The notes below the pieces were generated by a model that ran no database searches, was not told the DNA's origin, and saw only the letters and a program-made list of their open reading frames with translations. A program made the translations under genes and the position numbers. A stretch of DNA of 64,000 bases from Escherichia virus TH38, in the sequence record MT446410.1. One strand, 5' to 3'. Below are positions 50,841 to 63,569 of this stretch, piece by piece; positions within the stretch are counted from its first letter, which is position 1; every line of letters starts with the position of its first letter.

Positions 50841-52685
50841 TTAGTGTGTATGCATCCAGTTAAGTCCAATCTGACAATCAGATGCCAGAGGACATTCCAT
50901 GTTCAGATACTCGCCAGCTTTCTTAACACAAAGCTCAGTGTGCTCTTTGAGTTTCTGTACATCATTACGGTTTACTGAGAATTGACCTTCATCGTGCATA
51001 TCAATTACCTTAGCACAACGAACCTTATCTTTCTCAATCCACTTGTTAAGGAACATCATAGCATATTTCATAACAACAGCACCAGCACATTGCAGGAGTG
51101 TGTTAAGGGCTTTATGAACCATAACCTTACCAGTGGCATCCCGTCTCATTGTAATCTTACGACCATCAACTCCAATCAAGTATCCTTGAGCAGCTTTCTC
51201 TGTCATACGATCAATGAGGATTGCAATACATGGGTTCTCTGCTAAGAAACGTGCTCGCATCACTGAACCTTCGTCAGCCCCACCACCTACAATTGAACCA
51301 AGCTTAGCATCGCCAGCACCGTAGTTGAATGCATAGATAAATGTCTTAGCGTTGTCACGAGTAGGAAGACCAGCAAGTTTCTGGTTGTGGGAGTGGATAT
51401 CACCTTCAAGGAGAATATCACGATACATAATAGCAGAAGCTAAACCACGTTCTGCCAGAGCTTTCTTAGCTGGGTTGTTCTCTTCAATTGCTTCAGCAAG
51501 CATATCCCTACACTCTTTAATGAGGTAGTGAGCGAGCATACGAAGTTCCAGTCCAGAACCATCATACCCTAAGAATACTTCTTTACCAGCGGGTATGTAA
51601 TATTTGTAAGCGCCTACAGGTTTGTCTTTCTTCCCCGGCTTACCTTTCTCGTAAATTACGTTAGTACCTTTTCGTATATAACAACCATCAGGAACAACGT
51701 TAGTAATAACGAAAGGACGAGAGTGATCACTGTCTGAGTTATAGTCAGACTCAAACAAACTGCGACACTCGTGACCAAACAGACCACGGGAGGGAATATT
51801 AACCACGATACGATGTTTGAATCGAAAAGTCGGCGTAGCGCAGCTGTTAGCTTCTGCCGAAAGTTTACCATCTTCGCGTTCCTTTGCTATGAGTCCACTG
51901 ATAAGACCTAGCCTGTGAGCCGCCACAACGCGTCTCTTAAGCAAACTTCCGACACTCCCTAGCTCACCCCCTAACCCTTCTTCAAGAGTCTCCTCGAGGT
52001 TTGTAGGAGCTGTAGGCCACTTGTTTGATGTGGCTAGTGCTTTCTTAATCTCATCAAACGTTACAGGATTACGGCGATTAGGGTTTAATCCCAAACCAAA
52101 TACGTAAGCCTTCATATAATTCTTAGTTTTAAACCTGAAATGCTTTTCTAAGAACTTCTTAATATCAGCGTCAACCATCTCGGCTGTCTGCTTCTGCTTA
52201 GCATTGCCTCGCATCCAAGCAGTATACCATGCTTGGTATGTTCCATACTTTCTCATATCTTTCTTAATTTCGAAAGTATTCCAAGGCTTCTTAGATACGT
52301 TAAACTCTGGAGGAAGAAAGCCCTCATCCATAAGAGCTTCTTTAACTCGTGCATCTTTCGATGGGTCAAAGTCTACGTATTCGACACAGGTGAAAGCTCC
52401 ACCAATATCTTCTCTCTTCAGCCCAACCCTATCACAATAGGATTGAGGCCACTTCTGTAAAGCTCCAGACTTCTTAAATGGCTTCATATAAGTAGAGCCA
52501 TCTAATCTCATCTTAGGTAAGAGAGGAATCAGTTCTTTGTCAATATTAACAATAATCTCTTTAAGGAGGTGAACATACCACCGAGCATTTCTTCGGTTGA
52601 AACTCACTCCGTGCTTCGCTTGCTTAGAGATTATATCAGCGACAGTCATCTCTGTCAAAAATGGGAGAGCGTCCGGGTTGCTCAC
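50841..52685 (-). CDS. DNA polymerase, family A polymerase domain only
   Basis: Motif A GYDGSGLELRMLAH, motif B KTFIYAFNYGAG, motif C MHDEGQ; no exonuclease motifs. Confidence 0.7.
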   Translation of the reverse strand: MSNPDALPFLTEMTVADIISKQAKHGVSFNRRNARWYVHLLKEIIVNIDKELIPLLPKMRLDGSTYMKPFKKSGALQKWPQSYCDRVGLKREDIGGAFTCVEYVDFDPSKDARVKEALMDEGFLPPEFNVSKKPWNTFEIKKDMRKYGTYQAWYTAWMRGNAKQKQTAEMVDADIKKFLEKHFRFKTKNYMKAYVFGLGLNPNRRNPVTFDEIKKALATSNKWPTAPTNLEETLEEGLGGELGSVGSLLKRRVVAAHRLGLISGLIAKEREDGKLSAEANSCATPTFRFKHRIVVNIPSRGLFGHECRSLFESDYNSDSDHSRPFVITNVVPDGCYIRKGTNVIYEKGKPGKKDKPVGAYKYYIPAGKEVFLGYDGSGLELRMLAHYLIKECRDMLAEAIEENNPAKKALAERGLASAIMYRDILLEGDIHSHNQKLAGLPTRDNAKTFIYAFNYGAGDAKLGSIVGGGADEGSVMRARFLAENPCIAILIDRMTEKAAQGYLIGVDGRKITMRRDATGKVMVHKALNTLLQCAGAVVMKYAMMFLNKWIEKDKVRCAKVIDMHDEGQFSVNRNDVQKLKEHTELCVKKAGEYLNMECPLASDCQIGLNWMHTH

Positions 52686-52701
52686 TTTATACTCCTTTAA
52701 A

Positions 52702-53124
52702 TTATTGGTAAAGTAAATCTGTAAATGCTTGGTTATCTTCTATCACATCTAACACGGTAGCTTCATAACTGTAAGCCCTAACCGCCCCGTTAACAACTAT
52801 CCGAGGAGTAGGTGGAGGTGGTGCATGATTAGCCCTAGCTTCACGAGGTTGCTCTCGTACTAAATGAGCCACAACCCTTTGGTTAGCGACTTCTTCTCTT
52901 TCTCGGATAGCTCTCTGGATATAAGCCAACTTCATACCCCAAGCTTCTTCAAACTCTTGAGGGTGCTTATCACTGATAACTACATACTGACGTTCAGAGA
53001 TACCAGATCGAATTTCTGATAAAAGTTCATGGAACAAGTCCAGTTCATGTTCAGTGAGATTCATTTCAATATCATCCCACTTTAGAACTAGGAAACGGTT
53101 TTGGTGTCTAGCTGGTAATGGCAT
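52702..53124 (-). CDS. Hypothetical protein (140 aa)
   Basis: ORF. Confidence 0.4.
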   Translation of the reverse strand: MPLPARHQNRFLVLKWDDIEMNLTEHELDLFHELLSEIRSGISERQYVVISDKHPQEFEEAWGMKLAYIQRAIREREEVANQRVVAHLVREQPREARANHAPPPPTPRIVVNGAVRAYSYEATVLDVIEDNQAFTDLLYQ

Positions 53125-53127
53125 AAC

Positions 53128-53412
53128 TCAACCTCTTGGGAATGGCATCAAAAATTCCACAGCAGATTTAATTTCATTATTGATTCTTGAATCACGATAA
53201 GAGATAAACTTACCTTTGCTATCACGTAACATCACATTAGTTCTGGCTGTTTTGTGAGGGAGTAATGTGACACTAGTTGGAATAGTATCAATCCCTACAG
53301 CGTATTTGTCAATAGTCTTACTTTCAGCCAACAGATAAGACCAAGTACGCGGTTTCTGCTCCGGGCGGTTAGGGTATGTGTCCCGAATTTGAACCATAGC
53401 TAACTTATTCAT
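53128..53412 (-). CDS. Small protein, tandem paralog 2 of 2 (TARTNV.LR...GKFISY...PFP.G family)
   Basis: Shared motifs with the 53414-53668 ORF. Confidence 0.5.
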   Translation of the reverse strand: MNKLAMVQIRDTYPNRPEQKPRTWSYLLAESKTIDKYAVGIDTIPTSVTLLPHKTARTNVMLRDSKGKFISYRDSRINNEIKSAVEFLMPFPRG

Positions 53413-53413
53413 A

Positions 53414-53668
53414 TTAAACTCCTTTAGGGAATGGGATGAGATTTTCTACTGCAACACGGAAAGATTTTTCTACGTTCTTATTCTTATAAGAGATAAATTT
53501 TCCATCAGCTCCGCGAAGGAGTACGTTAGTGCGAGCTGTATTTGGGTTTTGTTGAATCATAGAACGAATGATGTTCTCTGAACCTCTATGCTTATTGGTG
53601 AATTTCCAACTGATAGTTTTACCGGTACGAGTTACATCAATAATATTTACAATTTTTACAATAGACAT
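53414..53668 (-). CDS. Small protein, tandem paralog 1 of 2
   Basis: Shared motifs with the 53128-53412 ORF. Confidence 0.5.
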   Translation of the reverse strand: MSIVKIVNIIDVTRTGKTISWKFTNKHRGSENIIRSMIQQNPNTARTNVLLRGADGKFISYKNKNVEKSFRVAVENLIPFPKGV

Positions 53669-53701
53669 ATTTATTACCTAAGAAATTTAATTTGGTTTAT
53701 A

Positions 53702-53732
53702 TAAAAGAAAAGGCCACCCATTTGGGTAGCCT
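53702..53732 (-). terminator. Rho-independent terminator (minus strand)
   Basis: ggctacccaaatgggtggcc plus T-rich tail on the minus strand. Confidence 0.5.
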
Positions 53733-53736
53733 CATA

Positions 53737-54054
53737 TTACGATGAGCTTAAAGCTCCTTTGCGTGCTCCAGCTGCTTTTCCAGCTCGATCACCACTTTTG
53801 CCGCCGTTTGAACGGTTTGAGCTGACTGATTCAACACGTAAGTTGCTTGACGCATTAGAACCTCCAGACTTGACAGCTCGTTTGTGTCCAACGTCTTTAC
53901 CTCTGACAGCAGCTTTTCCATCGCGCTTTTCAACGATGCGACGTGCACGGTGGCGCTGAGCATCTCCGCTCTTGCTCCCAACGCCTGTCTCACCACGGGC
54001 AATTGCGGTACGTCTTTCTTGTGCATAATCTCTCTTTCCTACATGATCTGCCAT
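53737..54054 (-). CDS. Basic Gly/Lys/Arg-rich protein (KGG-repeat-like); an alternative frame, 53748-54026, is also open
   Basis: AAGGAG RBS 7 nt before the ATG at 54054. Confidence 0.4.
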   Translation of the reverse strand: MADHVGKRDYAQERRTAIARGETGVGSKSGDAQRHRARRIVEKRDGKAAVRGKDVGHKRAVKSGGSNASSNLRVESVSSNRSNGGKSGDRAGKAAGARKGALSSS

Positions 54055-54090
54055 TTAAAACTCCTTAATATATCAGTGTACACTAAGGAG

Positions 54091-54099
54091 TATACATTA
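54091..54099 (-). promoter_or_regulatory. TAATGTATA motif (minus strand) between PhoH stop and the next gene
   Basis: About 40 nt upstream of the 54054 start. Confidence 0.4.
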
Positions 54100-54110
54100 T
54101 AAGTTACTGT

Positions 54111-54848
54111 TTAAGCTTTCTTTTCCATTGCTTTAACAATCGCCTTACAGAAACCAGAACGAACAATATCATCTGATTCACCATCTACAATCTCAGCAAA
54201 CTCATACAGATCATGTTCATCAATAAAGTTAGTAGCCCAAGTAAGACCACTCTCACGACCACGCATATCATGCTGGTTAGTATCACCCATGCAGAACAGC
54301 TGAGAGGTTTCTCCCAATCGAGTCATGATCGAGAAGGCTTCATCTTTAGTGGTGTTCTGGAATTCATCAACAATAACAATAGCATCATTGAAAGAACGAC
54401 CACGGAGATATTCCAGAGGTACGAACTCAATGTTACTATTACCGAGCTGGCATTCATAGAACCCCTTACCATATCGCTGAGTAATAACATCAATTATAGG
54501 CATCAGGTAAGGTTCAAACTTCTCACGCATTCCTCCCGGAAGTAACCCAAGAGAATTGCCCATGCCAACTGAAGGGCGACTCAGAATGATCTTCTGAATC
54601 TTACCGCTCTTCAGTGCATCAATAACTGTGGAAGTGATTACAAAGGTCTTACCACAGCCCGCAGGAGCGTCTGTGAACACAACTTGTTTAGTCTTGATAG
54701 CATTGAGTAGCTCAGACTGAAACTGGTTCTGAGGGACTACAGGCTTTGCTAAAACCACCTCTTCATACTCTCGCTTACCCTTACGAGTAACAAGTGCTTC
54801 TCGACGAAGGTCTTTCCGTGATTCTTTCCGTGATTGACGACGACTCAT
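54111..54848 (-). CDS. phoH: PhoH-like ATPase
   Basis: Walker A DAPAGCGKTF; PhoH-like LPGG...PY...P..D pattern. Confidence 0.7.
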   Translation of the reverse strand: MSRRQSRKESRKDLRREALVTRKGKREYEEVVLAKPVVPQNQFQSELLNAIKTKQVVFTDAPAGCGKTFVITSTVIDALKSGKIQKIILSRPSVGMGNSLGLLPGGMREKFEPYLMPIIDVITQRYGKGFYECQLGNSNIEFVPLEYLRGRSFNDAIVIVDEFQNTTKDEAFSIMTRLGETSQLFCMGDTNQHDMRGRESGLTWATNFIDEHDLYEFAEIVDGESDDIVRSGFCKAIVKAMEKKA

Positions 54849-55030
54849 TTACGCTCTCCAATTTCTTCGTAATGACACTCAGTAGTTAAACAGTCTTTAC
54901 AGATTGCTGTATAAACCCTGACGTTAGTAAATCGTTTGTTCTTCCCTTTGGTTGGAGAGCCTTTGGCAAGCTCTCTGATAATCTTGTTACTTAAATGAAG
55001 GTTTGTTCCTTCACATTTAGAGCACTTCAT
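54845..55030 (-). CDS. Small zinc-ribbon protein
   Basis: CxxC...CxxC. Confidence 0.4.
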   Translation of the reverse strand: MKCSKCEGTNLHLSNKIIRELAKGSPTKGKNKRFTNVRVYTAICKDCLTTECHYEEIGERK

Positions 55031-55346
55031 GGTTCATATCTTTATGAATCCTGTAAACAGCTGTCGCCATACAAGCAACAGCCTCATTGTGTGGGAGATG
55101 CATTCCTGTAGAACCATCCCAATCTTTGAACTCATTGTCAAAGACTCCGGTAGGCTCTGGATACAGAGCTTGCAGCTCCACTAGATCATTAGCAACTTGT
55201 TGCCATTTATCATCAGACCAGATAGGGTCATCCAACCAGTAATACAAATAGGAATGGATGATCAATTGCCTTCTATGCCGATTGATTACTTCAGCGGGAC
55301 TTATTTCACTTCCATTTGAAGTCCTAAATGTATTACTGTCAATCAT
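55017..55346 (-). CDS. Small protein resembling the N-terminal Ia region of NAD-dependent DNA ligase
   Basis: HSYLYYWLDDPIWSDDKWQQVANDLVELQALYPE. Confidence 0.3.
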   Translation of the reverse strand: MIDSNTFRTSNGSEISPAEVINRHRRQLIIHSYLYYWLDDPIWSDDKWQQVANDLVELQALYPEPTGVFDNEFKDWDGSTGMHLPHNEAVACMATAVYRIHKDMNHEVL

Positions 55347-55591
55347 TTCACAACCTTAAATTTGAATGTTGTTGGGTGATAATAATGCAATCTATTGATA
55401 GTGTGTTTTGTTTCAAGATATATCCTGCAAGAGTGGCACATGACATGGGTCAGACCAGTTACAGGATTAGGTTTAAAGTTGGCGACAGTCTTCTCTTTAT
55501 TACAGAAGCTACAGACTTTCTTTTCCATCTTTTCTCCAGTGGTCAACGAATTGCTGAAACACTTTACGATCAAATGTGAAATTACGAGCAA
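55343..55591 (-). CDS. Small zinc-ribbon protein
   Basis: CSFCNKEK...CHSC. Confidence 0.4.
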   Translation of the reverse strand: MLVISHLIVKCFSNSLTTGEKMEKKVCSFCNKEKTVANFKPNPVTGLTHVMCHSCRIYLETKHTINRLHYYHPTTFKFKVVK

Positions 55592-55742
55592 TTCCGCATT
55601 CTCTAAAAGTGGCAGGCATATAATCTACATCACCTTCAGATGTATGACCATAGACTTGAATAAGCTTCTTAATCTTATCTTTCTCTCTTCGAGGAAGCAT
55701 TCTAAATGCCTCCTGAATATCTGTAATATGTTTTATCTTCAT
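55509..55742 (-). CDS. Hypothetical protein (77 aa)
   Basis: ORF. Confidence 0.35.
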   Translation of the reverse strand: MKIKHITDIQEAFRMLPRREKDKIKKLIQVYGHTSEGDVDYMPATFRECGIARNFTFDRKVFQQFVDHWRKDGKESL

Positions 55743-55888
55743 AAGGAATTCCTGCTAATCCTCTGAGTTGTGGGAACAGCAATATTCACATACTCCGCAA
55801 CATGGACAAATTTCTACACTTGGGTCATATGCATCATCAACTGTCATCCCACACTTGGTGCAGAACACATCGTCGTCTTCTTCCAACA

Positions 55889-56137
55889 TTAATTCTCCAA
55901 ACAAGAATCATTCATCAGTAGCTCCAAACTATCAAGTGTGTAGTAATAACCAAAGAATGGGGCTGTTGACTTGGAAACCTTTTTATCAAAAAGAGATTGA
56001 GAAAGATTTATTTCTACTCCAGCATCTTCAAGCTGTTGTTTTGTGGGGTATGTAATGAAAGAGCAAAGCACTTCTGTGTACTCCCCTCTGTCTGTCTCTT
56101 CAACACGACTCAGAATCCAAATACTTTTACTAGCCAT
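55889..56137 (-). CDS. Hypothetical protein (82 aa)
   Basis: ORF. Confidence 0.35.
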   Translation of the reverse strand: MASKSIWILSRVEETDRGEYTEVLCSFITYPTKQQLEDAGVEINLSQSLFDKKVSKSTAPFFGYYYTLDSLELLMNDSCLEN

Positions 56138-56138
56138 T

Positions 56139-56795
56139 TTAACTCTCCAAAGTTTTCTTCAGAGCTGCCCACGAGATTGGGTAGAGTTTAGCCATCTCTT
56201 CATCTAGAGATTTAGCAAACACTCGAACTTCATATTGAGCGTGAGAGGAGAGTCGCTGACGGCACAACTCAAACCAGCCATACAAAGAACCAGTCCACAC
56301 CCACTCAGTGATCATCCCCTGAGGAAGAACAAATCGAGCTTGCTCTGGTGCAATAAATTCAATCAACTTGTCATATGCTGCTAGAGAAGCTTCATATGCA
56401 TCATTAATCAACATTAATGCTTCAGCTCGCTCTCCGTCGAGGAGTTGAATCCCTGAACCTGCATGGAGGTCCGAAGGTCTCGCAAAAATCTCTTTAGGGA
56501 TGAAGACTTCAACTGCTCCATCTTTATACCGCCGGGACATTTCGTTCCACGAGAATCCAACCTGATGCTTGCCCAACTGTCTCGCAATTGCGATAGGTGC
56601 TTTGCATCGGAAACTGACTTGCGGGTGTCGGAATGGAGTACAGTGTTTTTCCCGTGCAAGGAAGTTGATAAGTTTTGTGTCTCTCTCATTTAAGTCGCCT
56701 TCTCGAACAACACCGAAAGATACTCTAGCTGCATTGACTACAGATTTGTCACTACCCATTGCTTCAATCAGTGTTGCTTGTAGTTGTTCGTTCAA
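56139..56795 (-). CDS. ThyX-like flavin-dependent thymidylate synthase (divergent motif)
   Basis: HCTPFRH and GKHQVGFSWNEMSRRY resemble the ThyX signatures, with KH in place of RHR. Confidence 0.5.
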   Translation of the reverse strand: MNEQLQATLIEAMGSDKSVVNAARVSFGVVREGDLNERDTKLINFLAREKHCTPFRHPQVSFRCKAPIAIARQLGKHQVGFSWNEMSRRYKDGAVEVFIPKEIFARPSDLHAGSGIQLLDGERAEALMLINDAYEASLAAYDKLIEFIAPEQARFVLPQGMITEWVWTGSLYGWFELCRQRLSSHAQYEVRVFAKSLDEEMAKLYPISWAALKKTLES

Positions 56796-57234
56796 TTAAA
56801 AGTTCCTTTTTTCGATTCATGTAAACTTGATGAGCTTCTTCGGCAGTTCCATACATACCTAGATGTATATCTACTTTATCAATACAAATAACAGCCCTAT
56901 ATCTGATAGTTCCTGATCTGTATTTGACAACCTTAACACCTTGAAGCCCTGTTTCCTTGTTTGATACTCTAGCCCCGAACTGGTTGTGGCAGTTTGTCGA
57001 GGTGTCCACCAATCTCAAGTTCTGTATTGAGTTGTTCTTCTTATTTCTATCGATATGATCTATCTGAGAAGAAGGCCATTCTCCATAATAAAAGAACCAT
57101 GCCACTTTATGAGCTTTGTGTACTTTCCCTTTAAACCGCAGGGTTATGTACTTACTTCGAGTTCCTCCTAATTTCTTACCTTTTCGAAAGAACTCTCCAG
57201 TCTCAGGGATATACTCTAAATCATCGATTACCAT
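56764..57234 (-). CDS. HNH homing endonuclease with AP2-like DNA-binding domain
   Basis: IDHIDRNKKNNSIQNLRL and GVKVVKYRSGTIRYRAVICI. Confidence 0.6.
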   Translation of the reverse strand: MVIDDLEYIPETGEFFRKGKKLGGTRSKYITLRFKGKVHKAHKVAWFFYYGEWPSSQIDHIDRNKKNNSIQNLRLVDTSTNCHNQFGARVSNKETGLQGVKVVKYRSGTIRYRAVICIDKVDIHLGMYGTAEEAHQVYMNRKKELLIERTTTSNTD

Positions 57235-57499
57235 TCAGAGCTGTATCTAAAAATGCTTTCAGGTTTGCTTCAGTCTGCATACCAGAGAGGCTGTAGTGTG
57301 TACCGCTGTTACGGTCAGGCACAACGAAAGCAGGGATACTTCGTACACCATACTTAACAGCTTGTTCACGACCATCACCTTCAAGGATGTTAATCTCTTC
57401 CACTTCTACATCAAACTCCTTAACAACCTTCTCAAAGGTAGGAGCCATTGCTTTACATGGAGCACACTGATCGCTATAAAACTTAATTACTTTAGACAT
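57221..57499 (-). CDS. Thioredoxin
   Basis: CAPC active site, 92 aa. Confidence 0.7.
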   Translation of the reverse strand: MSKVIKFYSDQCAPCKAMAPTFEKVVKEFDVEVEEINILEGDGREQAVKYGVRSIPAFVVPDRNSGTHYSLSGMQTEANLKAFLDTALNGNR

Positions 57500-57517
57500 G
57501 TAAATCCTTATGCAGTC

Positions 57518-57687
57518 AAGAGGTGAAGCAGGAACGGGATAACAACAGCTACGATAACCATGATAGTTGATGCTGTTTGAATCTCACCTTTCTTATCAGG
57601 AGTTTCTTCAATAAGCTTACCAGAAGCCCAATAAATACCACCACCAATAAAGATAGCCCAAATACCCCATACGATTGCTGATAACAT
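57518..57687 (-). CDS. Small two-TM membrane protein (56 aa) missing from the ORF track
   Basis: ATG with AAGGA RBS; MLSAIVWGIWAIFIGGGIYWASGKLIEETPDKKGEIQTASTIMVIVAVVIPFLLHLLTA. Confidence 0.4.
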
Positions 57688-57747
57688 ATATCTATATCCT
57701 TATAAATAAGTTCTCCCCACCTCGGGTTAGGAGACAGGGCGGAGGTT

Positions 57748-58359
57748 TTAGTAAGACACATCACCACTTGAATGGGACATGTTGCTCTTGACGAAGTAGC
57801 AATACTTGCCAAGACCTTCATTAATTTCTTGAAGCATACTCTGATCGACAGGGTAGGTGGCTAAATCACCATCAAACTCATCCATCTTCTCAATAATACA
57901 CATCAAGGTCATGCACATATCAGAGAGCATACCGTCCATGTCTAGATCAGCATTACCCTCTGAGAACCAAGCATGGGAGAGATAATTAGCTGCTGTAGCA
58001 TCCACTTTAACGCAGTGGTAACGCATACGTTCAGCAATACGATCTCCTACCTGTCGTGCGTAATCTTCCAGCTCATCAAACATACCATGAACACCCTGAA
58101 ATCCTGCACCAGAGACGTTCCAGTGGTAGTTTTTAGCTTTGATATGCAATAGTTCCATGTTAGCTTGTAAGCAGCTCAGGATGTGTTCTAGGCTGTTTCC
58201 ACTAATCATACCTTGCATTGTTTCAAGGCGAGAGATTGATAGGTCGGACCGGTCTAACATGCTATAACTATCACGACCAATCTCAGGTAAATCAAAAACA
58301 TTCTTATGCATTTGGGTTTTCTCCATCAAGTTCAACTGAGTTAGCAACGTTACGTGCAA
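57748..58359 (-). CDS. Dps-like ferritin (DNA-binding ferritin-like protein)
   Basis: NYHWNVSGAGFQGVHGMFDEL matches the Dps ferroxidase-site signature. Confidence 0.55.
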   Translation of the reverse strand: MHVTLLTQLNLMEKTQMHKNVFDLPEIGRDSYSMLDRSDLSISRLETMQGMISGNSLEHILSCLQANMELLHIKAKNYHWNVSGAGFQGVHGMFDELEDYARQVGDRIAERMRYHCVKVDATAANYLSHAWFSEGNADLDMDGMLSDMCMTLMCIIEKMDEFDGDLATYPVDQSMLQEINEGLGKYCYFVKSNMSHSSGDVSY

Positions 58360-58633
58360 TATTATCCATTACCTGCTGGGTAATTACGATGCAGTTCTGT
58401 GGGTCTACTGACTTAGAACGCCCCATTTCAGGGTCATACACCTTAACTCGCTTAGCAGTTGAGCCTGTAACCTGAAGAACCTTCAACAGATATCCCTGAT
58501 TACCAATAGACCAAGCAACAACATCACGATTCTTGATAAAGCGACCAAGCATATCACGATGATAAAACTGTTGCATCACCTTGGATTTTGTAATCTCTTC
58601 AGTGGGCGGGGCCACTTTACTCAAATCTAACAT
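58304..58633 (-). CDS. Hypothetical protein (109 aa)
   Basis: ORF. Confidence 0.4.
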   Translation of the reverse strand: MLDLSKVAPPTEEITKSKVMQQFYHRDMLGRFIKNRDVVAWSIGNQGYLLKVLQVTGSTAKRVKVYDPEMGRSKSVDPQNCIVITQQVMDNIARNVANSVELDGENPNA

Positions 58634-58705
58634 AACTCTCTCCTGTAAAATACAAATTCTTATTGTACTCTATATACATTTGAGAGTTATCATATCTACT
58701 ACCAA

Positions 58706-58915
58706 TCAGTAGTAAATTACTTTAGACATAAAAGAACCAGTGTTAGGGTCTTCATACCAGCGATGTATGTCAGCGCTTTTTACTATTGTGCCCAGAGTCT
58801 TCAACTGTTTCTTAGCAATACGAGCCTCTTTGCGAGTGTCAAACAATTTGATGTTATCTTTTCTCATGTGTTGCTCAAGATCCCAAACAACATGAATAGC
58901 CCACATCTTTTTCAT
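58706..58915 (-). CDS. Small basic protein, tandem paralog 3 of 3 (C-terminal ...KVIYY)
   Basis: Shares the TR..AR..KK ... SKV.YY pattern with its two neighbours. Confidence 0.5.
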   Translation of the reverse strand: MKKMWAIHVVWDLEQHMRKDNIKLFDTRKEARIAKKQLKTLGTIVKSADIHRWYEDPNTGSFMSKVIYY

Positions 58916-59124
58916 TAGTAATGTACCTTTCCGCTGATATAAACACGACCAGAAGAATACTCCTTGGCCTTATGAATACTGATGCTCTTAGTTAAGTCTA
59001 CATTGAACATAGACTTTTTAAAATCTCGAGCCTGTTGACGAGTGGGTAGTGCAGTCATAGTCATACCACCTGATGCCCACTTAATCTTTGCTAACCAAAA
59101 TTGTCTCATAGTGATCGGTCTCAT
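58915..59124 (-). CDS. Small basic protein, tandem paralog 2 of 3 (C-terminal ...KVHY)
   Basis: 1-nt start/stop overlaps with neighbours. Confidence 0.5.
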   Translation of the reverse strand: MRPITMRQFWLAKIKWASGGMTMTALPTRQQARDFKKSMFNVDLTKSISIHKAKEYSSGRVYISGKVHY

Positions 59125-59321
59125 TAATAATAAACCTTACTGTTAACACAAAAAGCACCTTCACTATTCACGATAGCTTTTCCTAGTGTAACCTTATTAA
59201 GTCTAAAAGTAGATTTGTATTGATTTTTGACCCTACGTGCGTGCTCTCGAGTCTTAACAAAATCTACAGCTACTAACTCTCCAGTCGTGTTATCATGTAC
59301 ACGAACAATCCACTTTTTCAT
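59124..59321 (-). CDS. Small basic protein, tandem paralog 1 of 3 (C-terminal ...KVYY)
   Basis: As above. Confidence 0.5.
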   Translation of the reverse strand: MKKWIVRVHDNTTGELVAVDFVKTREHARRVKNQYKSTFRLNKVTLGKAIVNSEGAFCVNSKVYY

Positions 59322-59855
59322 TTACACACCTTTAGATGCAACTACACCTTCAGAGTTATTATAACGACCCTTCACTGCATAGGAGTGCTCCCCTGCATGA
59401 GAGTGCTCAAACATAACCATCTGACCAACACGCATACCAGCACGAACTCGTAAGCTATGATGCTTGGTTACGTTATGGAATTCAAATGTCAGCTTACTGC
59501 TATTAAACCCTGCGTCTGCCCACCCAGCGTGGAGATGGTTCAAACCACAACGAGCCATAGATGAACGCAGAACAAACAGACTTGAGATGTTATCTGGAAG
59601 ATTAAACTCCTCCATAGAGTGAGCCAAGAAGAACTGACCCGGAGTGATAACCAAACCCTCTTCAGGAATCTTTACTTCCTTCCACTGAAGATTCTCTTTC
59701 GCATCAATATCAACGATGCCATCAGCCTGTTCTTCAACAAGGATAGTATCACCAATACGGATATCCACACTAGCAGCGTTAACATACTTATGCTCCGCAT
59801 CCAGATAGCCATTGTCAATTACATCGTGCAGTTCAACACTTCCTAGTAAACTCAT
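59322..59855 (-). CDS. dCTP deaminase / dUTPase-superfamily enzyme
   Basis: ASVDIRIGD, ITPGQFFLA and RSSMARCGL...HAGWADAGF motifs. Confidence 0.55.
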   Translation of the reverse strand: MSLLGSVELHDVIDNGYLDAEHKYVNAASVDIRIGDTILVEEQADGIVDIDAKENLQWKEVKIPEEGLVITPGQFFLAHSMEEFNLPDNISSLFVLRSSMARCGLNHLHAGWADAGFNSSKLTFEFHNVTKHHSLRVRAGMRVGQMVMFEHSHAGEHSYAVKGRYNNSEGVVASKGV

Positions 59856-59864
59856 TCTTATTCC

Positions 59865-61226
59865 TTAGTTGTTTGTTTCCATGTCAAAAGAGATTCCACG
59901 ACCCGCTTCATCGGCAAACCGAACTGTGCGGGTTTGAGGTTCTAATACTTCAGGGTTGTTAGCAACAAAGCGGTCAGCGAGATTTCGACTGATGGTCTCA
60001 GCAAGTTCCTCATGAGAAGGAACATCAAGACTACCTGCCACATCTTGGGCCACACCTTCATCAGTCCACACAGCCCTAACAGGTGCGTTGATATCACCAA
60101 CAGCAAAACCCTGACCAGAGAACTGACGTGCGCTAACAGTTAAACCATTTGGACGACCACGAGAAGGACTAGCCATCCATCTCTCCATAGAATCACTTGT
60201 AATACCAAGAGCTTCTTCAAAAGATGTTCTACGAGTAGGGCTTACTCTTCGTGACTCTTGTGCTCGGCGCATTGCAGGGGCTACAAACACCCCTTCAATT
60301 GCATTGTGCCGATTAGGTTCATCTTCTCGACCAAGGAGATCTCCTCCTGTATTAGTTGTTAAGTTTGTCAACCCTTCAGACCAATATGCACGAATCTGGC
60401 TAGAGCCATGAATGCTTGACATTAACTGAATCTCTTCATAAGGGATTCCAAAGAATCGACTCATGTCTCGGTTAACACAATATTGAGCACTTGTTGTATC
60501 CTCAATAAGAGAAACCTGACCTAATCCATTAACCAGATGACTAACCGGCTGGGGTGTGGGAAGATATCGAGTTTGGGCCATGTATTGATGTGCAACTGCT
60601 GGAGAGGAAAATCTCAATACTTGCGAGTTAGGCCACTTCTTGTGAACGTATCTGATTTCACGACTAGAAACAACCACTGGACAGGGGGCGGTCATAGCCA
60701 AATACCCATGAGAAGTCATGAATAAATTGTCAAGAGTCATCGCACCACGACACATCATAGGAAAATTATCCAATACCTCTTCAATAGAAGTAGGATAATT
60801 AAACATGAATTGGATACGAACCCCATTCCACTGAAACTCAATAATATCAGTGAATGTTAATTGAGAACCCCCAGCATAGGATTCGTTCGTAGCTTCAGCA
60901 AGAAGGGATGCATACTCGATATCTTGTGACTCTAGCCATTCCTTCACATTACTTTCAATCTCTCTTCCAAGAGCTTGCCAACGGTCAGTTGGGATGGATA
61001 TGTTTTGAGTTCTTGGTGTTTGTCCTCTGACAATAAAGATATCAATGTCATGTGGAGCTGTGTTATTAAGCACAGCATCTCGAACAGCCCCACCAGTAAT
61101 GATGGGACAGATACCGTCTGGAATTAAGTTGTTATTAATCAATTGCTCAATGAAGTGACGACCAACAGTGATATCAGGTTGTTGAGAAACCTTATCTTCA
61201 ATTTGGTTAATCGGGATAACAATCAT
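59865..61226 (-). CDS. Pol-beta superfamily nucleotidyltransferase (tRNA CCA-adding / poly(A) polymerase head-like) with about 330-aa extension
   Basis: ITGGAVRDAVLNNTAPHDIDIF; start taken at the ATG one nt after the exonuclease stop. Confidence 0.5.
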   Translation of the reverse strand: MIVIPINQIEDKVSQQPDITVGRHFIEQLINNNLIPDGICPIITGGAVRDAVLNNTAPHDIDIFIVRGQTPRTQNISIPTDRWQALGREIESNVKEWLESQDIEYASLLAEATNESYAGGSQLTFTDIIEFQWNGVRIQFMFNYPTSIEEVLDNFPMMCRGAMTLDNLFMTSHGYLAMTAPCPVVVSSREIRYVHKKWPNSQVLRFSSPAVAHQYMAQTRYLPTPQPVSHLVNGLGQVSLIEDTTSAQYCVNRDMSRFFGIPYEEIQLMSSIHGSSQIRAYWSEGLTNLTTNTGGDLLGREDEPNRHNAIEGVFVAPAMRRAQESRRVSPTRRTSFEEALGITSDSMERWMASPSRGRPNGLTVSARQFSGQGFAVGDINAPVRAVWTDEGVAQDVAGSLDVPSHEELAETISRNLADRFVANNPEVLEPQTRTVRFADEAGRGISFDMETNN

Positions 61227-61227
61227 T

Positions 61228-61785
61228 TTACATTTTCCAATATAATGAAGGTGGGTCGTAAGGGTCGAATCCTGTGAGTTCACACAAGTATTTATAAACC
61301 TTAACGGTTAAGTTAACGTCCTGTTCACAATAAGTAAACATATCTTCAGTGAAAGCATCCCATGCTTCCTCTTGCTCACCGTAATCTCCTTTAAGTTCCT
61401 CTAAGAACTCACCCCACTGCTTCAAGCCATGACCTCTTGGGCCATGTCTAGGGTCGCCTTTCGGATACTCAGGACTGTCACCAATACGGTCAGGTTTAAG
61501 ATATCGACTAAGACATAGAGTGTCAAAGACGTTAAAATGATATTTAATCAAAGAAGGATACATCTTCTTCAGAGCAGGTAAGTCGAAGTCAATAATGTTA
61601 TGACCAACGAGCACATCAGCTTCTGTAAGTTTACGAATCCCGTCTTCAATTTGGTGAGGCCGATAGCCCCACCTTTCACCAGTTTCAACATTGAAGATGT
61701 AAATACACCATACTTTAGTTATGTCATCGTACAGTGCATTACTCTCGATATCGAATGCAAACACTTTCTTCTTTTTCTTTACCAC
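61228..61785 (-). CDS. Stand-alone DEDDy 3'-5' exonuclease domain protein
   Basis: FDIES (Exo I), HNIIDFD (Exo II), YCEQD (Exo III). Confidence 0.6.
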
Positions 61786-63569
61786 GGTGAAGCTCCATCT
61801 GCTTGGTTGACGAGAGAAGCTGCATCCTCTCCGTTAGTTAAAACGAATGGATTATCTTCATCAACTTCAAAGTCTTCCCTTTCTACAAGTCTACCGGTTT
61901 CACTGATATACTTAGTATAGCAGACACCCGTCTGACCGTAGTTACGTTCTTTCAGTAATCGAATGACTGAGAGGTTCTTAGCTAAGCCATCAGCTTGCTT
62001 GTCGCGCTCAAAGCCAATGATACACTGACACCAACGCATAAGGGAACGAGAACCAGTGAACTGCACTTCACGTACCTGTCCACCTTCTTCATGAGGAGCA
62101 CCACCTGCCGGAGCATTAAGGTGAGATAGCACGAAAGCGGTAAAGTCTAACTCTTTACACATACCAGCAAGCTCGGAAGCAATCTTACTGATTTCAGTGT
62201 TAATCTCTGAAGGTGTTAAATGAGATACCAGAGCGGTAATGTTATCAAGGATGATAAACTTACACTGGTTTTCAACTACCCAGAAACGGATACACTGTTT
62301 AATGTCTTCCCATTCGTTCTGTCCGAAGTTGTCATACAAGAAGAATTTGTCTGCATAACGAAGTGCTTCATTACGCAAATCCTCCTCATCATATTCAACA
62401 TCAGGTCGGTGGAAAGGAATTGATGCTGACTTACCAGCAATGTTCTTAACAGACATGCCTACCTTCTCTTCCAAGAAGAAGCCACCTCCATTAAAACCAT
62501 GCTCTAAGCACAGATGGGCAACCAGCTCGTGAGCAATGAGTGTTTTACCACTCCCTACTCCACCACCAATTGCTACCACCTCTCCCCATCGAATACCGAA
62601 GGTCATCTCATTCAGAGTCTTCCACGGATATGGGATACCCCACTCCGCTTTCTTCAGAGCATCATCAAGACAATCAAAGATTGTTACAGCTCCAGCAGGA
62701 GATTCCCGCTTTGCTGAGTACTTGAGAATGTTGAATAACTCTTGACCACGACCAGACAGAAGCATGTCATTCGCATCCTTAATCTCTTTCTCCACACCGT
62801 TGTATGGGAAAGTTCCTTTAGGAATACGAGCAAACTTAACATGAGGGAATAAAGAACGACCTTTTGTTAAAGCTATCTCACCTGCATCATCGTTGTCCAT
62901 GCAGAGCACAACCTCCTCAAAACCATTTACGAAGTCTCGGTTACGAGACAACACAGAAGAGATTGAACCTGCACCGAACGGTAAAGAAACACATGCTGGT
63001 TTAATGTTTGTTGCATTTGTAAAAGCTGTAAGGACATGGAAACCTGACATACAGGATAGCGGGTCTTCAAAAATGAACAGCTTCTTGTTGTACACATCTC
63101 CACGTTGAGCTTGTGCCATACCGAACAAATCTGCTTCTTTCACACTGCCGACGTAATAGAACTTCTTACTATCTAGCAGCTTAACCTCATATCCGACAAT
63201 GTTTCCATCACGTTCACGAGGAAAGAAGTAACTGTCTGGTGTCTGACCATCAGTTTGACTGAGGCCAATACGACACTCAAAACGCTCTGATACAGCTTTT
63301 GGGATTAAACGGCGAGTAAGTTCACCCTGAGGAAGCTCTAAGCAATCATCTAAGACTTCTCTCAACTCTTCAGGGGATAACTCTTTCTTCTCGTTTGGAG
63401 TAGGTGTAGTGCCCTTTTCGAACACTTCGTAATTCCCACAACGGTTACAACTTCCCCACTCCTCACCAGTCTCTTCGTTACGGAAGAGAATCATGTGGTT
63501 GTGGGTTTTATCACGACCATGAGAGATACATTCCTTACAACCTGTGTCTCCCAAAATGATCTTTGACAT
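61779..63569 (-). CDS. T7 gp4-like primase-helicase
   Basis: N-terminal zinc finger CKEC...CNRCG; DnaB-like Walker [10 protein letters not shown]. Confidence 0.7.

Follow-up and report, generated by a model that had tools for sequence, protein, structure and literature searches.

A predicted minimal nucleotidyltransferase of the class II branch in the replication operon of phiEco32-like phages

Introduction

SPbeta-like Bacillus phages encode Gabija anti-defence protein 2 (Gad2), which is 400 aa long and is predicted to contain a nucleotidyltransferase domain. Phage SPbetaL7 became sensitive to Gabija when Gad2 was deleted, and a Brevibacillus homologue abolished Gabija defence (bioRxiv 10.1101/2023.05.01.538930). 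As of February 2026, the mechanism of Gad2 was still given as unknown (PMC12904381). Here we analysed a nucleotidyltransferase gene of Escherichia virus TH38 that was the orthologue of gp73 of phage phiEco32 and was located in a stretch of 64,000 nucleotides from sequence record MT446410.1 (hereafter the window). Its product, called gp73 below, was compared with Gad2, with the class II CCA-adding enzymes as well as poly(A) polymerase of the Pol-beta superfamily, and with the small nucleotidyltransferases of other phages.

The gene was already public at the annotation level and its naming was not new. RefSeq gave the phiEco32 protein (phi32_73, YP_001671818.1) the name 'nucleotidyltransferase', as did PHROG 12715. 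The product was discussed in 2014 as a class II CCA-adding-enzyme-like domain in the SU10 paper (PMC4281155), and the BASEL paper also discussed the nucleotidyltransferase gene of the Gordonclarkvirinae (PMC11990801). We searched the HIDEN-SEQ essentiality preprint, the phage 7-11 transcription paper and the Kuravirus pangenome paper for the function of gp73 and found nothing. The initial annotation of the window, made from the sequence alone, missed both this prior annotation and the relationship to Gad2. What our analysis adds is that gp73 failed the tests for a CCA-adding enzyme, that it appears to belong to a phage-only group including Gad2, and that it was inherited with the replication operon and carries a disordered tail under selection.

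Phages of the phiEco32 type are often considered for therapy and withstand restriction and other defences unusually well. Gad2, which disables Gabija, was the single studied member of the minimal nucleotidyltransferase group in which gp73 seems to fall. Since members that infect E. coli K-12 (Bas86-Bas94) are now available, the substrate of gp73 could inform on the whole group, possibly including Gad2.

Results

The gene and its catalytic head

The nucleotidyltransferase open reading frame (ORF) lay on the minus strand at 59865-61226, with its ATG at 61226-61224 and its stop codon at 59867-59865, and encoded 453 aa. The initial annotation had both these coordinates and the GGAVRD...DIDIF signature exactly right. 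The coding sequence rested on the ORF list, the sequence, PHROG 12715 and orthology to phiEco32 gp73. A longer reading from a GTG at 61283 was rejected, as it overlapped the upstream gene and was unused in all annotated relatives. PHROG 12715 covered residues 1-453 with E=1e-260. The protein was 99.6% identical to the copies of TH06 and EC.W8-1 and 84% identical to that of phiEco32, annotated orthologues ranging from 84 to 99.6%. The orthologue was present in 97 phage records. In an exhaustive search of 1.84 billion representative proteins, the family profile found only 46 representatives at E<=1e-3, and the family was therefore small. Over a 4.2-kb block, identity was 99.9% with Escherichia phages TH06, EC.W2-6 and EC.W8-1, and 94-97% with SU10, SGF2 and the BASEL phages Bas90 and Bas91. 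The source phage is a Kuravirus (Gordonclarkvirinae), a phiEco32-like podovirus with a prolate head.

An AlphaFold2 model was built from a 21-sequence family alignment. The predicted local distance difference test score (pLDDT) was mostly 75-94 for residues 1-272 and below 50 for residues 273-276, 281-286 and 288-453. Residues 1-150 (60777-61226, minus strand) comprised N-terminal helices and the Pol-beta head, and produced the class II fold matches. The modelled head consisted of a beta-alpha-beta core with D60 and D62, followed by a beta-hairpin with D127 and Q139. Motif A, GGAVRDAVLNNTAPHDIDIF (residues 45-64; 61035-61094, minus strand), is predicted to provide a GG loop that binds a nucleoside triphosphate (NTP) and two metal-binding aspartates. 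Within it, GGAVRD occupied residues 45-50 and DIDIF residues 60-64, which is the class II arrangement of GGxVRD with DxD 9-10 residues later.

In a Foldseek search against the PDB, the top 37 matches were all class II CCA-, CC- or A-adding enzymes or E. coli poly(A) polymerase I (PAP I), with E values from 2.5e-5 and a probability of 1.0. Other Pol-beta families were lower, with TENT5 at 7.6 and TUTases, CD-NTases, Pol X, OAS, RelA/SpoT and MenT at 7.0 or less. PAP I scored 10.0, which was not meaningfully above the 9.3-8.6 of the CCA enzymes. As modelled, gp73 thus has the head-domain fold of class II enzymes, and the initial assignment of the head to this type was right. The Pfam profile for this head, PF01743 (PolyA_pol), matched residues 43-119 below threshold (18.7 bits against a cut-off of 23, E=0.0024). 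It matched 15 of 21 relatives, with a best E of 6e-4, and an NCBIfam search with the gp73 protein gave no match.

The family alignment contained 25 representatives with identity down to ~25%. G45, G46, R49, D50, D60, D62, F64, Y117, I128, Q139, P156, Y193 and K197 were invariant in all 25, and positions 127 and 190 were always D or E. The AlphaFold2 model placed D127 on the beta-strand that follows the DxD strand; class II enzymes have their third acidic residue at this place (E57 of E. coli Cca in the reference alignment described below). E130 was also considered as the third carboxylate and was rejected, being conserved in 12 of the 25 representatives. The ratio of nonsynonymous to synonymous substitution rates (dN/dS) was 0.07-0.17 in the core. 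The PHROG 12715 match, the 97 phage records, the invariant residues and this low ratio argued that the motif match was not due to chance. The conservation pattern indicates that gp73 is an active enzyme, as far as can be predicted from such alignments.

Features of CCA-adding enzymes

Although gp73 shares the class II catalytic head, it fails most of the features that define a CCA-adding enzyme. Motif A was the only stretch that aligned by sequence to solved CCA-adding enzymes. Single-sequence and family-profile searches against solved structures recovered this stretch of ~20 residues alone, at E values of 0.5-1.8, and an hhalign comparison of the family with E. coli Cca as the only target covered 23 columns; these results were too weak to place motifs B to E. 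A class II reference alignment comprised the head and neck of E. coli Cca and six canonical phage or viral enzymes. Its invariants were motif A, RRD (R90, R91 and D92) of motif B, D131 and R134 of motif D (EDPLRxLRxxRF), and ERxxxE (E175, R176 and E180) of motif E. The gp73 family aligned to it over 60 columns around motif A, with a probability of 69-76%.

Motif B, which recognises the ribose 2'-OH, had no conserved counterpart in the 25 representatives. In the profile and motif alignment, the matching region of the family read x-x-[FM]-P-x-x-[CSA], and the residues before F155 were variable. Conserved counterparts of motif D (EDxxR, the C/A template) and of motif E were also missing in these representatives. 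In place of motif D, the family had R-[DE]190-x-x-Y193-x-x-K-K197. A shifted equivalence of D190 with D131 and of Y193 with R134 is possible, and the template would still be changed. The helical body and tail domains that bind tRNA were absent from the AlphaFold2 model, in which disorder followed residue 272. The acidity of the core (net charge -11, pI 4.9) was considered as an argument against nucleic-acid binding. It was dropped because the head and neck of genuine CCA enzymes are equally acidic (-2 to -15).

The substrate side was also surveyed. No tRNA genes were found within the 64-kb window. The single tRNA-Arg(UCU) of phiEco32 (locus L024, 8352-8428) had its 3' CCA encoded in the genome, so the Kuravirus tRNA-Arg needs no CCA addition. 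In a tblastn search with residues 1-230 of E. coli Cca, 475 phage records were found to encode canonical tRNA nucleotidyltransferases. All 30 records listed were of at least 84 kb, and no Gordonclarkvirinae were among the matches listed.

Gad2 and the small phage nucleotidyltransferases

Profile comparisons placed the gp73 family in a group of minimal nucleotidyltransferases that is specific to phages and also contains the Gad2 domain PF26128. The family core aligned by hhalign to two sets of small phage nucleotidyltransferases (200-290 aa) with probabilities of 99.3% (S1) and 98.9% (S2), as compared with 76% for the canonical class II enzymes. One group of small nucleotidyltransferases was linked in turn to class II at 97.7%. 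PHROG 1614, which contains such proteins, matched gp73 at 1.4e-7. In BFVD, the nearest viral folds after the orthologue were nucleotidyltransferases of 170-230 aa from phiKMV-like, T7-like and other podoviruses (E 3e-8 to 7e-4). Examples of the small proteins came from Pseudomonas phage LKD16, Aeromonas phage phiAS7, Providencia phage PS3 and Pectobacterium phage DU_PP_II. In a Pectobacterium phage paper (PMC7693777) they were called tRNA nucleotidyltransferases from modelling alone.

PF26128 was on precomputed Pfam record for about 30 of 44 Kuravirus orthologues, and was marked 'weak' (E 1e-5 to 1e-3) where it was graded. The record was absent for the cluster closest to the window protein (P0001) and for the Nieuwekanaalvirus and Suseptimavirus orthologues, and the small relatives had stronger recorded matches. 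A hidden Markov model (HMM) of Gad2 built from 25 Firmicutes homologues matched the small proteins P0117 and P0118 (about 1e-16) and P0106 (8e-5), which were also matched by the Kuravirus profile. Between the gp73 family and Gad2, GG/DxD was paired, as were IQFM with VQLIH and FPMMC with FDFTVC. The alignments of the two never extended past the head.

The neighbourhoods of two short PF26128 nucleotidyltransferases (L020, 4971-7106; L019, 1-6651) were also recorded. Both resembled counter-defence islands. One had Macro domain, Acb5 (anti-CBASS) and T5 A2-like genes. The other had NAMPT and NUDIX/cytidylyltransferase genes of the NAD-salvage type, and an RNA ligase of the T4 Rnl2 type.

Subdomain and tail

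The initial annotation described a C-terminal extension of 330 aa. The extension exists, but it is two parts and not one: a folded and conserved subdomain at ~151-272 and a tail at ~273-453 with pLDDT mostly below 50. The subdomain (residues 151-272; 60411-60776, minus strand) was specific to the family and was modelled with pLDDT of 67-90. Its motifs were FPxxC (residues 155-159) and R-[DE]-x-x-Y-x-x-K-K (residues 189-197), and it aligned to the FDFTVC and LRxxKY regions of Gad2-type nucleotidyltransferases.

The first half of the tail (residues 273-362; 60141-60410, minus strand) was mostly predicted to be disordered, and throughout from residue 288 on. Among 42 Kuravirus orthologues its conservation was 0.82-0.92, matching the catalytic core, and its dN/dS was 0.07-0.08. 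This part of the tail is under strong purifying selection within Kuravirus. It contained an Arg-rich patch at residues 318-362 with a net charge of +4. The end of the tail (residues 363-453 and the stop codon; 59865-60140, minus strand) was variable and acidic, with dN/dS of 0.4-1.1 at an unusually low synonymous rate (dS 0.06-0.12). Residues 376-420 were prone to indels, with deletions of 16-22 aa in orthologues, and the last ~35 residues were conserved. Between genera the tail was not alignable (about 20% identity). The tail end was missing in distant family members of 274-300 aa, which had short basic tails (pI 10-12).

The low dS of the last ~90 codons, as compared with 0.4-0.7 in the remaining gene between Kuravirus genomes, was an observation in its own right. 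It could reflect recent recombination, or a constraint at the nucleotide level such as signals for the dCTP deaminase gene.

Genomic context

The gene was flanked upstream by the gene of a DnaQ-type 3'-5' exonuclease subunit of DNA polymerase (185 aa; 61228-61785, minus strand; PF01612 at 1.8e-9, PHROG 38876/403). Downstream was a dCTP deaminase gene (177 aa; 59322-59855, minus strand; PF22769 at 3.5e-34). In loci L001-L007 and L009-L012, the exonuclease gene always stood immediately 5' of the nucleotidyltransferase, and dCTP deaminase was 3' of it in every relative with a readable downstream gene. The short contig L012, which was cut off at this point, gave only the adjacency of exonuclease and nucleotidyltransferase. 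The recurring order was a GGCT-like gene, primase/helicase, exonuclease, nucleotidyltransferase and dCTP deaminase, followed by Dps-like and/or thioredoxin and ThyX genes. It was kept in phiEco32, ECBP2 (Suseptimavirus) and EP335 (Nieuwekanaalvirus), as well as in metagenomic relatives with nucleotidyltransferases of 25-37% identity. Synteny over such a range of divergence implies that gp73 is encoded by a vertically inherited core gene of an operon for replication and nucleotide metabolism. This placement was unlike the patchy early-region placement of Gad2 and the small Gad2-domain proteins.

The exonuclease stop codon (TAA, 61230-61228) was separated from the nucleotidyltransferase ATG by 1 nt, and the initial annotation had taken the two genes to be translationally coupled. 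The adjacency, the gap and co-transcription held, and coupling is possible. However, the helicase and exonuclease genes overlapped, and the exonuclease-nucleotidyltransferase junction of relatives ranged from a 4-nt overlap to a 21-nt gap. The 1-nt gap was therefore nothing special, as tight spacing was general in the operon.

Several other features of this region were noted. The T7 gp4-like primase/helicase (61779-63569, minus strand) had an acidic C-terminal tail with a terminal aromatic residue, recalling the polymerase-binding C-terminal tails of T7 gp4 and gp2.5. The DNA polymerase was split into the exonuclease subunit at 61228-61785 and a polymerase subunit at 50841-52685, and the phage had its own thioredoxin (57221-57499). 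Just downstream of dCTP deaminase, at 58706-59321 (minus strand), there were three tandem small ORFs of 69, 69 and 65 aa that looked like paralogues. They ended in ...V[IHY]Y(Y), shared 'T/P-R-x-x-A-R-x-x-K' and corresponded to phiEco32 gp69-71, annotated as hypothetical. Between the thioredoxin and ThyX genes was a 156-aa ORF (56764-57234, minus strand) with an HNH-like motif (DHIDRNKKNNSIQNLRLV...N), and another Kuravirus had an HNH_3 gene directly after dCTP deaminase (L009, 4862-5371). These HNH genes look like mobile homing endonucleases that move around the replication operon, and such endonucleases were likewise noted in the legend of the BASEL S3 figure (PMC11990801).

Restriction sites

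The BASEL authors described the Gordonclarkvirinae, for which modification genes are not known, as 'remarkably resistant' to restriction-modification systems. As a speculation, they suggested a DNA modification made by dCTP deaminase and the nucleotidyltransferase (PMC11990801). The window contained 35 EcoRV, 10 EcoKI, 108 EcoP1 and 9 EcoRI sites. With 20 EcoRV sites expected, EcoRV was not depleted, and neither were EcoKI and EcoP1, so the restriction resistance could not be explained by site avoidance.

Some other short palindromes were strongly depleted in the window relative to a second-order Markov expectation: GATC (123 observed, 283 expected), CCWGG (13 and 94), PstI (0 and 21), BamHI (1 and 11) and KpnI (1 and 13). 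The Dam and Dcm sites are avoided for a reason other than the reported restriction resistance. In phiEco32 (51930-59136; L001, 1-6438), in a region just past the right end of the window, a gene cluster upstream of primase/helicase encoded an amidoligase, a COOH-NH2 ligase, a RimK-like ATP-grasp protein, a glutamine amidotransferase and a gamma-glutamyl cyclotransferase. This cluster is another candidate source of restriction resistance.

Discussion

Possible function of gp73

Judged from its sequence and modelled fold, gp73 is apparently a minimal offshoot, still catalytically competent, of the class II branch within the Pol-beta superfamily, and probably an active, template-independent 3'-end nucleotidyltransferase. 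In the mechanism that we favour, the GG(A)VRD loop would bind an NTP or dNTP, two metal ions would be held by D60, D62 and D/E127, and a nucleotide would be moved without a template onto the 3'-OH of a nucleic-acid end. Since the RRD ribose sensor and the EDxxR template are missing, gp73 should not build CCA and may not tell NTP from dNTP. Presumably the subdomain, the selected basic stretch of the tail or a replisome partner would hold the acceptor. The weakest step is the role, which would most likely be a core one within the replication module, namely to modify or cap nucleic-acid 3' ends arising from phage DNA replication. Such capping could serve replication itself, or shield ends from host nucleases and end-sensing defences. 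Maturation of tRNA is an unlikely role under this explanation. We consider the chemistry alone, that is, template-independent nucleotide transfer to a nucleic-acid 3'-OH, likely to be right. The composite proposal, in which gp73 performs this transfer in connection with replication for end processing or protection, has in our judgement an even chance.

Several points weigh against this proposal. The acceptor is left unconstrained by the computations and might be RNA, DNA, protein or a small molecule. An RNA acceptor is favoured over DNA by the closest solved folds, as these belong to RNA-specific enzymes. Synteny with replication genes is guilt by association, as phage operons are densely packed whatever the function of their genes. 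The assignment of D127 as the third carboxylate and the loss of EDxxR came from sequence and profile alignment with predicted secondary structure, not from superposition. A Gad2-only alignment was matched to the gp73 family by hhalign with a probability of 46% (E=2e-4, 113 columns), and the Gad2 HMM gave no match to Kuravirus proteins at E<10. The family core matched the Gad2 N-terminal domain combined with three small PF26128 proteins at 97.1% (E=4.9e-11, 107 columns), a figure that is not independent because the bridging sequences were found with the family profile. As judged from these profiles, the Gad2 link is real but remote and transitive, and is confined to about 110 columns of the head.

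How far this link extends to function is a question for two related ideas. gp73 could be a counter-defence protein like Gad2, neutralising GajAB or another end- or nucleotide-sensing defence by enzymatic modification, which would help plating on many wild E. coli strains. The PF26128 records of most Kuravirus orthologues, the match to the extended Gad2-domain set and three common motifs fit such a role, as do the Gabija phenotypes of the Gad2 knockout and the Brevibacillus homologue (bioRxiv 10.1101/2023.05.01.538930). The small Gad2-domain nucleotidyltransferases adjoin Macro, Acb5 and T5-A2-like or NAMPT/NUDIX and Rnl2 genes, and the Gordonclarkvirinae resist almost all tested defence systems (PMC11990801). 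The homology is nevertheless confined to the catalytic head, the Gad2 C-terminal domain is missing, and the VRD signature kept in the gp73 family is missing in Gad2. Moreover, gp73 belongs to a core replication operon and not to a patchy early anti-defence island, Gad2 itself still lacks a known mechanism (PMC12904381), and the literature searched contained no report of a Gabija test on Kuravirus phages; we regard this role as rather unlikely. A more specific combination of both ideas, in which gp73 adds nucleotides as caps to 3' ends, either of the linear genome or of replication intermediates, and so hides them from end-sensing Gabija (GajAB), RecBCD-linked systems and perhaps restriction follow-up, seems to us quite unlikely. 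If true, it would reveal the mechanism of the Gad2 family and one reason for the defence resistance of the Gordonclarkvirinae. Tailing of RNA 3' ends in the manner of a poly(A) polymerase is a further reading of the same chemistry. Untemplated tails on host or phage RNA may mark host mRNA for decay and nucleotide recycling, or may process replication primers. The best solved matches are all enzymes that work on RNA 3' ends, the loss of the CCA-templating motif fits a non-specific tailing enzyme, and relatives in BFVD were named 'Poly A polymerase head domain' or 'Poly-A polymerase'. These names are fold-based and not experimental, however, and the Foldseek score of PAP I did not set it apart from the CCA enzymes. 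With neither a PAP I-like RNA-binding body or C-terminal domain in the protein nor an RNA-metabolism gene in the neighbourhood, this reading is also fairly improbable, and a dispensable RNA-tailing activity would be of modest interest.

The remaining explanations would give gp73 a role elsewhere. The initial annotation proposed, as a possibility, the repair of tRNA 3' ends, and a CCA-repair activity would counteract host nucleases that damage the acceptor ends of tRNA. In its favour, motif A carries the signature of class II tRNA nucleotidyltransferases, the head resembles CCA-adding enzymes in fold, and phages commonly encode canonical CCA enzymes. Both the SU10 authors (PMC4281155) and one metagenome annotation used the name 'class II CCA-adding enzyme'. 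Yet motifs B, D and E and the tRNA-binding body and tail domains are missing, PF01743 stays below threshold, the sole phage tRNA encodes its CCA, and no tRNA gene was found in the window; in addition, none of the 30 listed matches among the 475 Cca tblastn records was from the Gordonclarkvirinae. The E. coli host also has its own Cca. We therefore hold CCA addition or repair to be very unlikely. The DNA-modification pathway, in which gp73 and dCTP deaminase would make a non-canonical nucleotide or modify DNA, would explain the restriction resistance that site avoidance cannot, and the missing RRD ribose sensor would permit the use of dNTPs; it is the pair to which the BASEL authors pointed (PMC11990801). 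Against it, the phage encodes ThyX and thioredoxin, and close relatives encode NrdD. As ThyX is co-encoded, dCTP deaminase is explained by ordinary dTTP synthesis, and uracil-containing DNA is unlikely for the same reason. Small early proteins could instead supply anti-restriction activity, and no DNA modification of Kuravirus phages was reported in the literature searched. To our knowledge, no phage DNA-modification pathway uses a nucleotidyltransferase of the Pol-beta fold, and we give this pathway little credence. A catalytically dead scaffold, that is, a structural or regulatory replisome subunit that keeps only the fold, would suit the position among replisome genes and the long disordered tail under selection, which is typical of interaction hubs. 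Q139 is invariant where one alternative alignment would put a carboxylate. But G45, G46, R49, D50, D60, D62 and D/E127 were conserved in 25 of 25 representatives, a pattern of enzymes and not of pseudoenzymes, and a dead scaffold is extremely unlikely.

Comparison with known systems

The class II enzymes and PAP I (PF01743; for example PDB 1miv, 3h37, 1ou5 and 3aql) share with gp73 motif A, GGxVRD-x(9)-DxD, and a conserved acid on the following beta-strand, which is D/E127 in gp73. In gp73, however, a family-specific subdomain of ~120 aa and a disordered tail of ~180 aa stand in place of the helical body and tail. The similarity in sequence is restricted to about 20-60 residues; RRD, EDxxR and ERxxxE are not conserved, and the PF01743 match is below threshold. 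The canonical phage tRNA nucleotidyltransferases of Vequintavirinae, jumbo phages and T4-like Vibrio and Aeromonas phages are likewise phage-encoded members of the same superfamily. They differ in having 30-59% identity to E. coli Cca over the head and neck, together with all class II motifs, whereas tblastn with Cca did not detect the Kuravirus protein.

The small phage nucleotidyltransferases (170-290 aa, PHROG 1614) were the nearest relatives by hhalign, with probabilities of 98.9-99.3%, E values of 1e-17 to 3e-20 and 133-166 aligned columns. They comprise nothing beyond the head and a short neck, and so have neither the region of residues 200-272 nor the tail. Their contexts are varied and include anti-defence-like islands, positions beside an integrase gene and positions beside GTP cyclohydrolase. 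Like gp73, Gad2 has a phage-specific, minimal nucleotidyltransferase head that appears to be derived from class II, and RRD and EDxxR are missing in both. The motifs [IV]Q[LF][MI], F-x-x-x-C and P-[VI]-V...R-x-x-[KR]-Y are also common to the two. Gad2 has GGTITS where gp73 has GGAVRD, and carries a C-terminal domain of ~220 aa (about residues 180-400) that gp73 lacks, without a disordered tail. Finally, Gad2 (SPbetaL7 ORF159) is encoded at an anti-Gabija locus of temperate SPbeta-like Bacillus phages, whereas gp73 is encoded in a replication operon.

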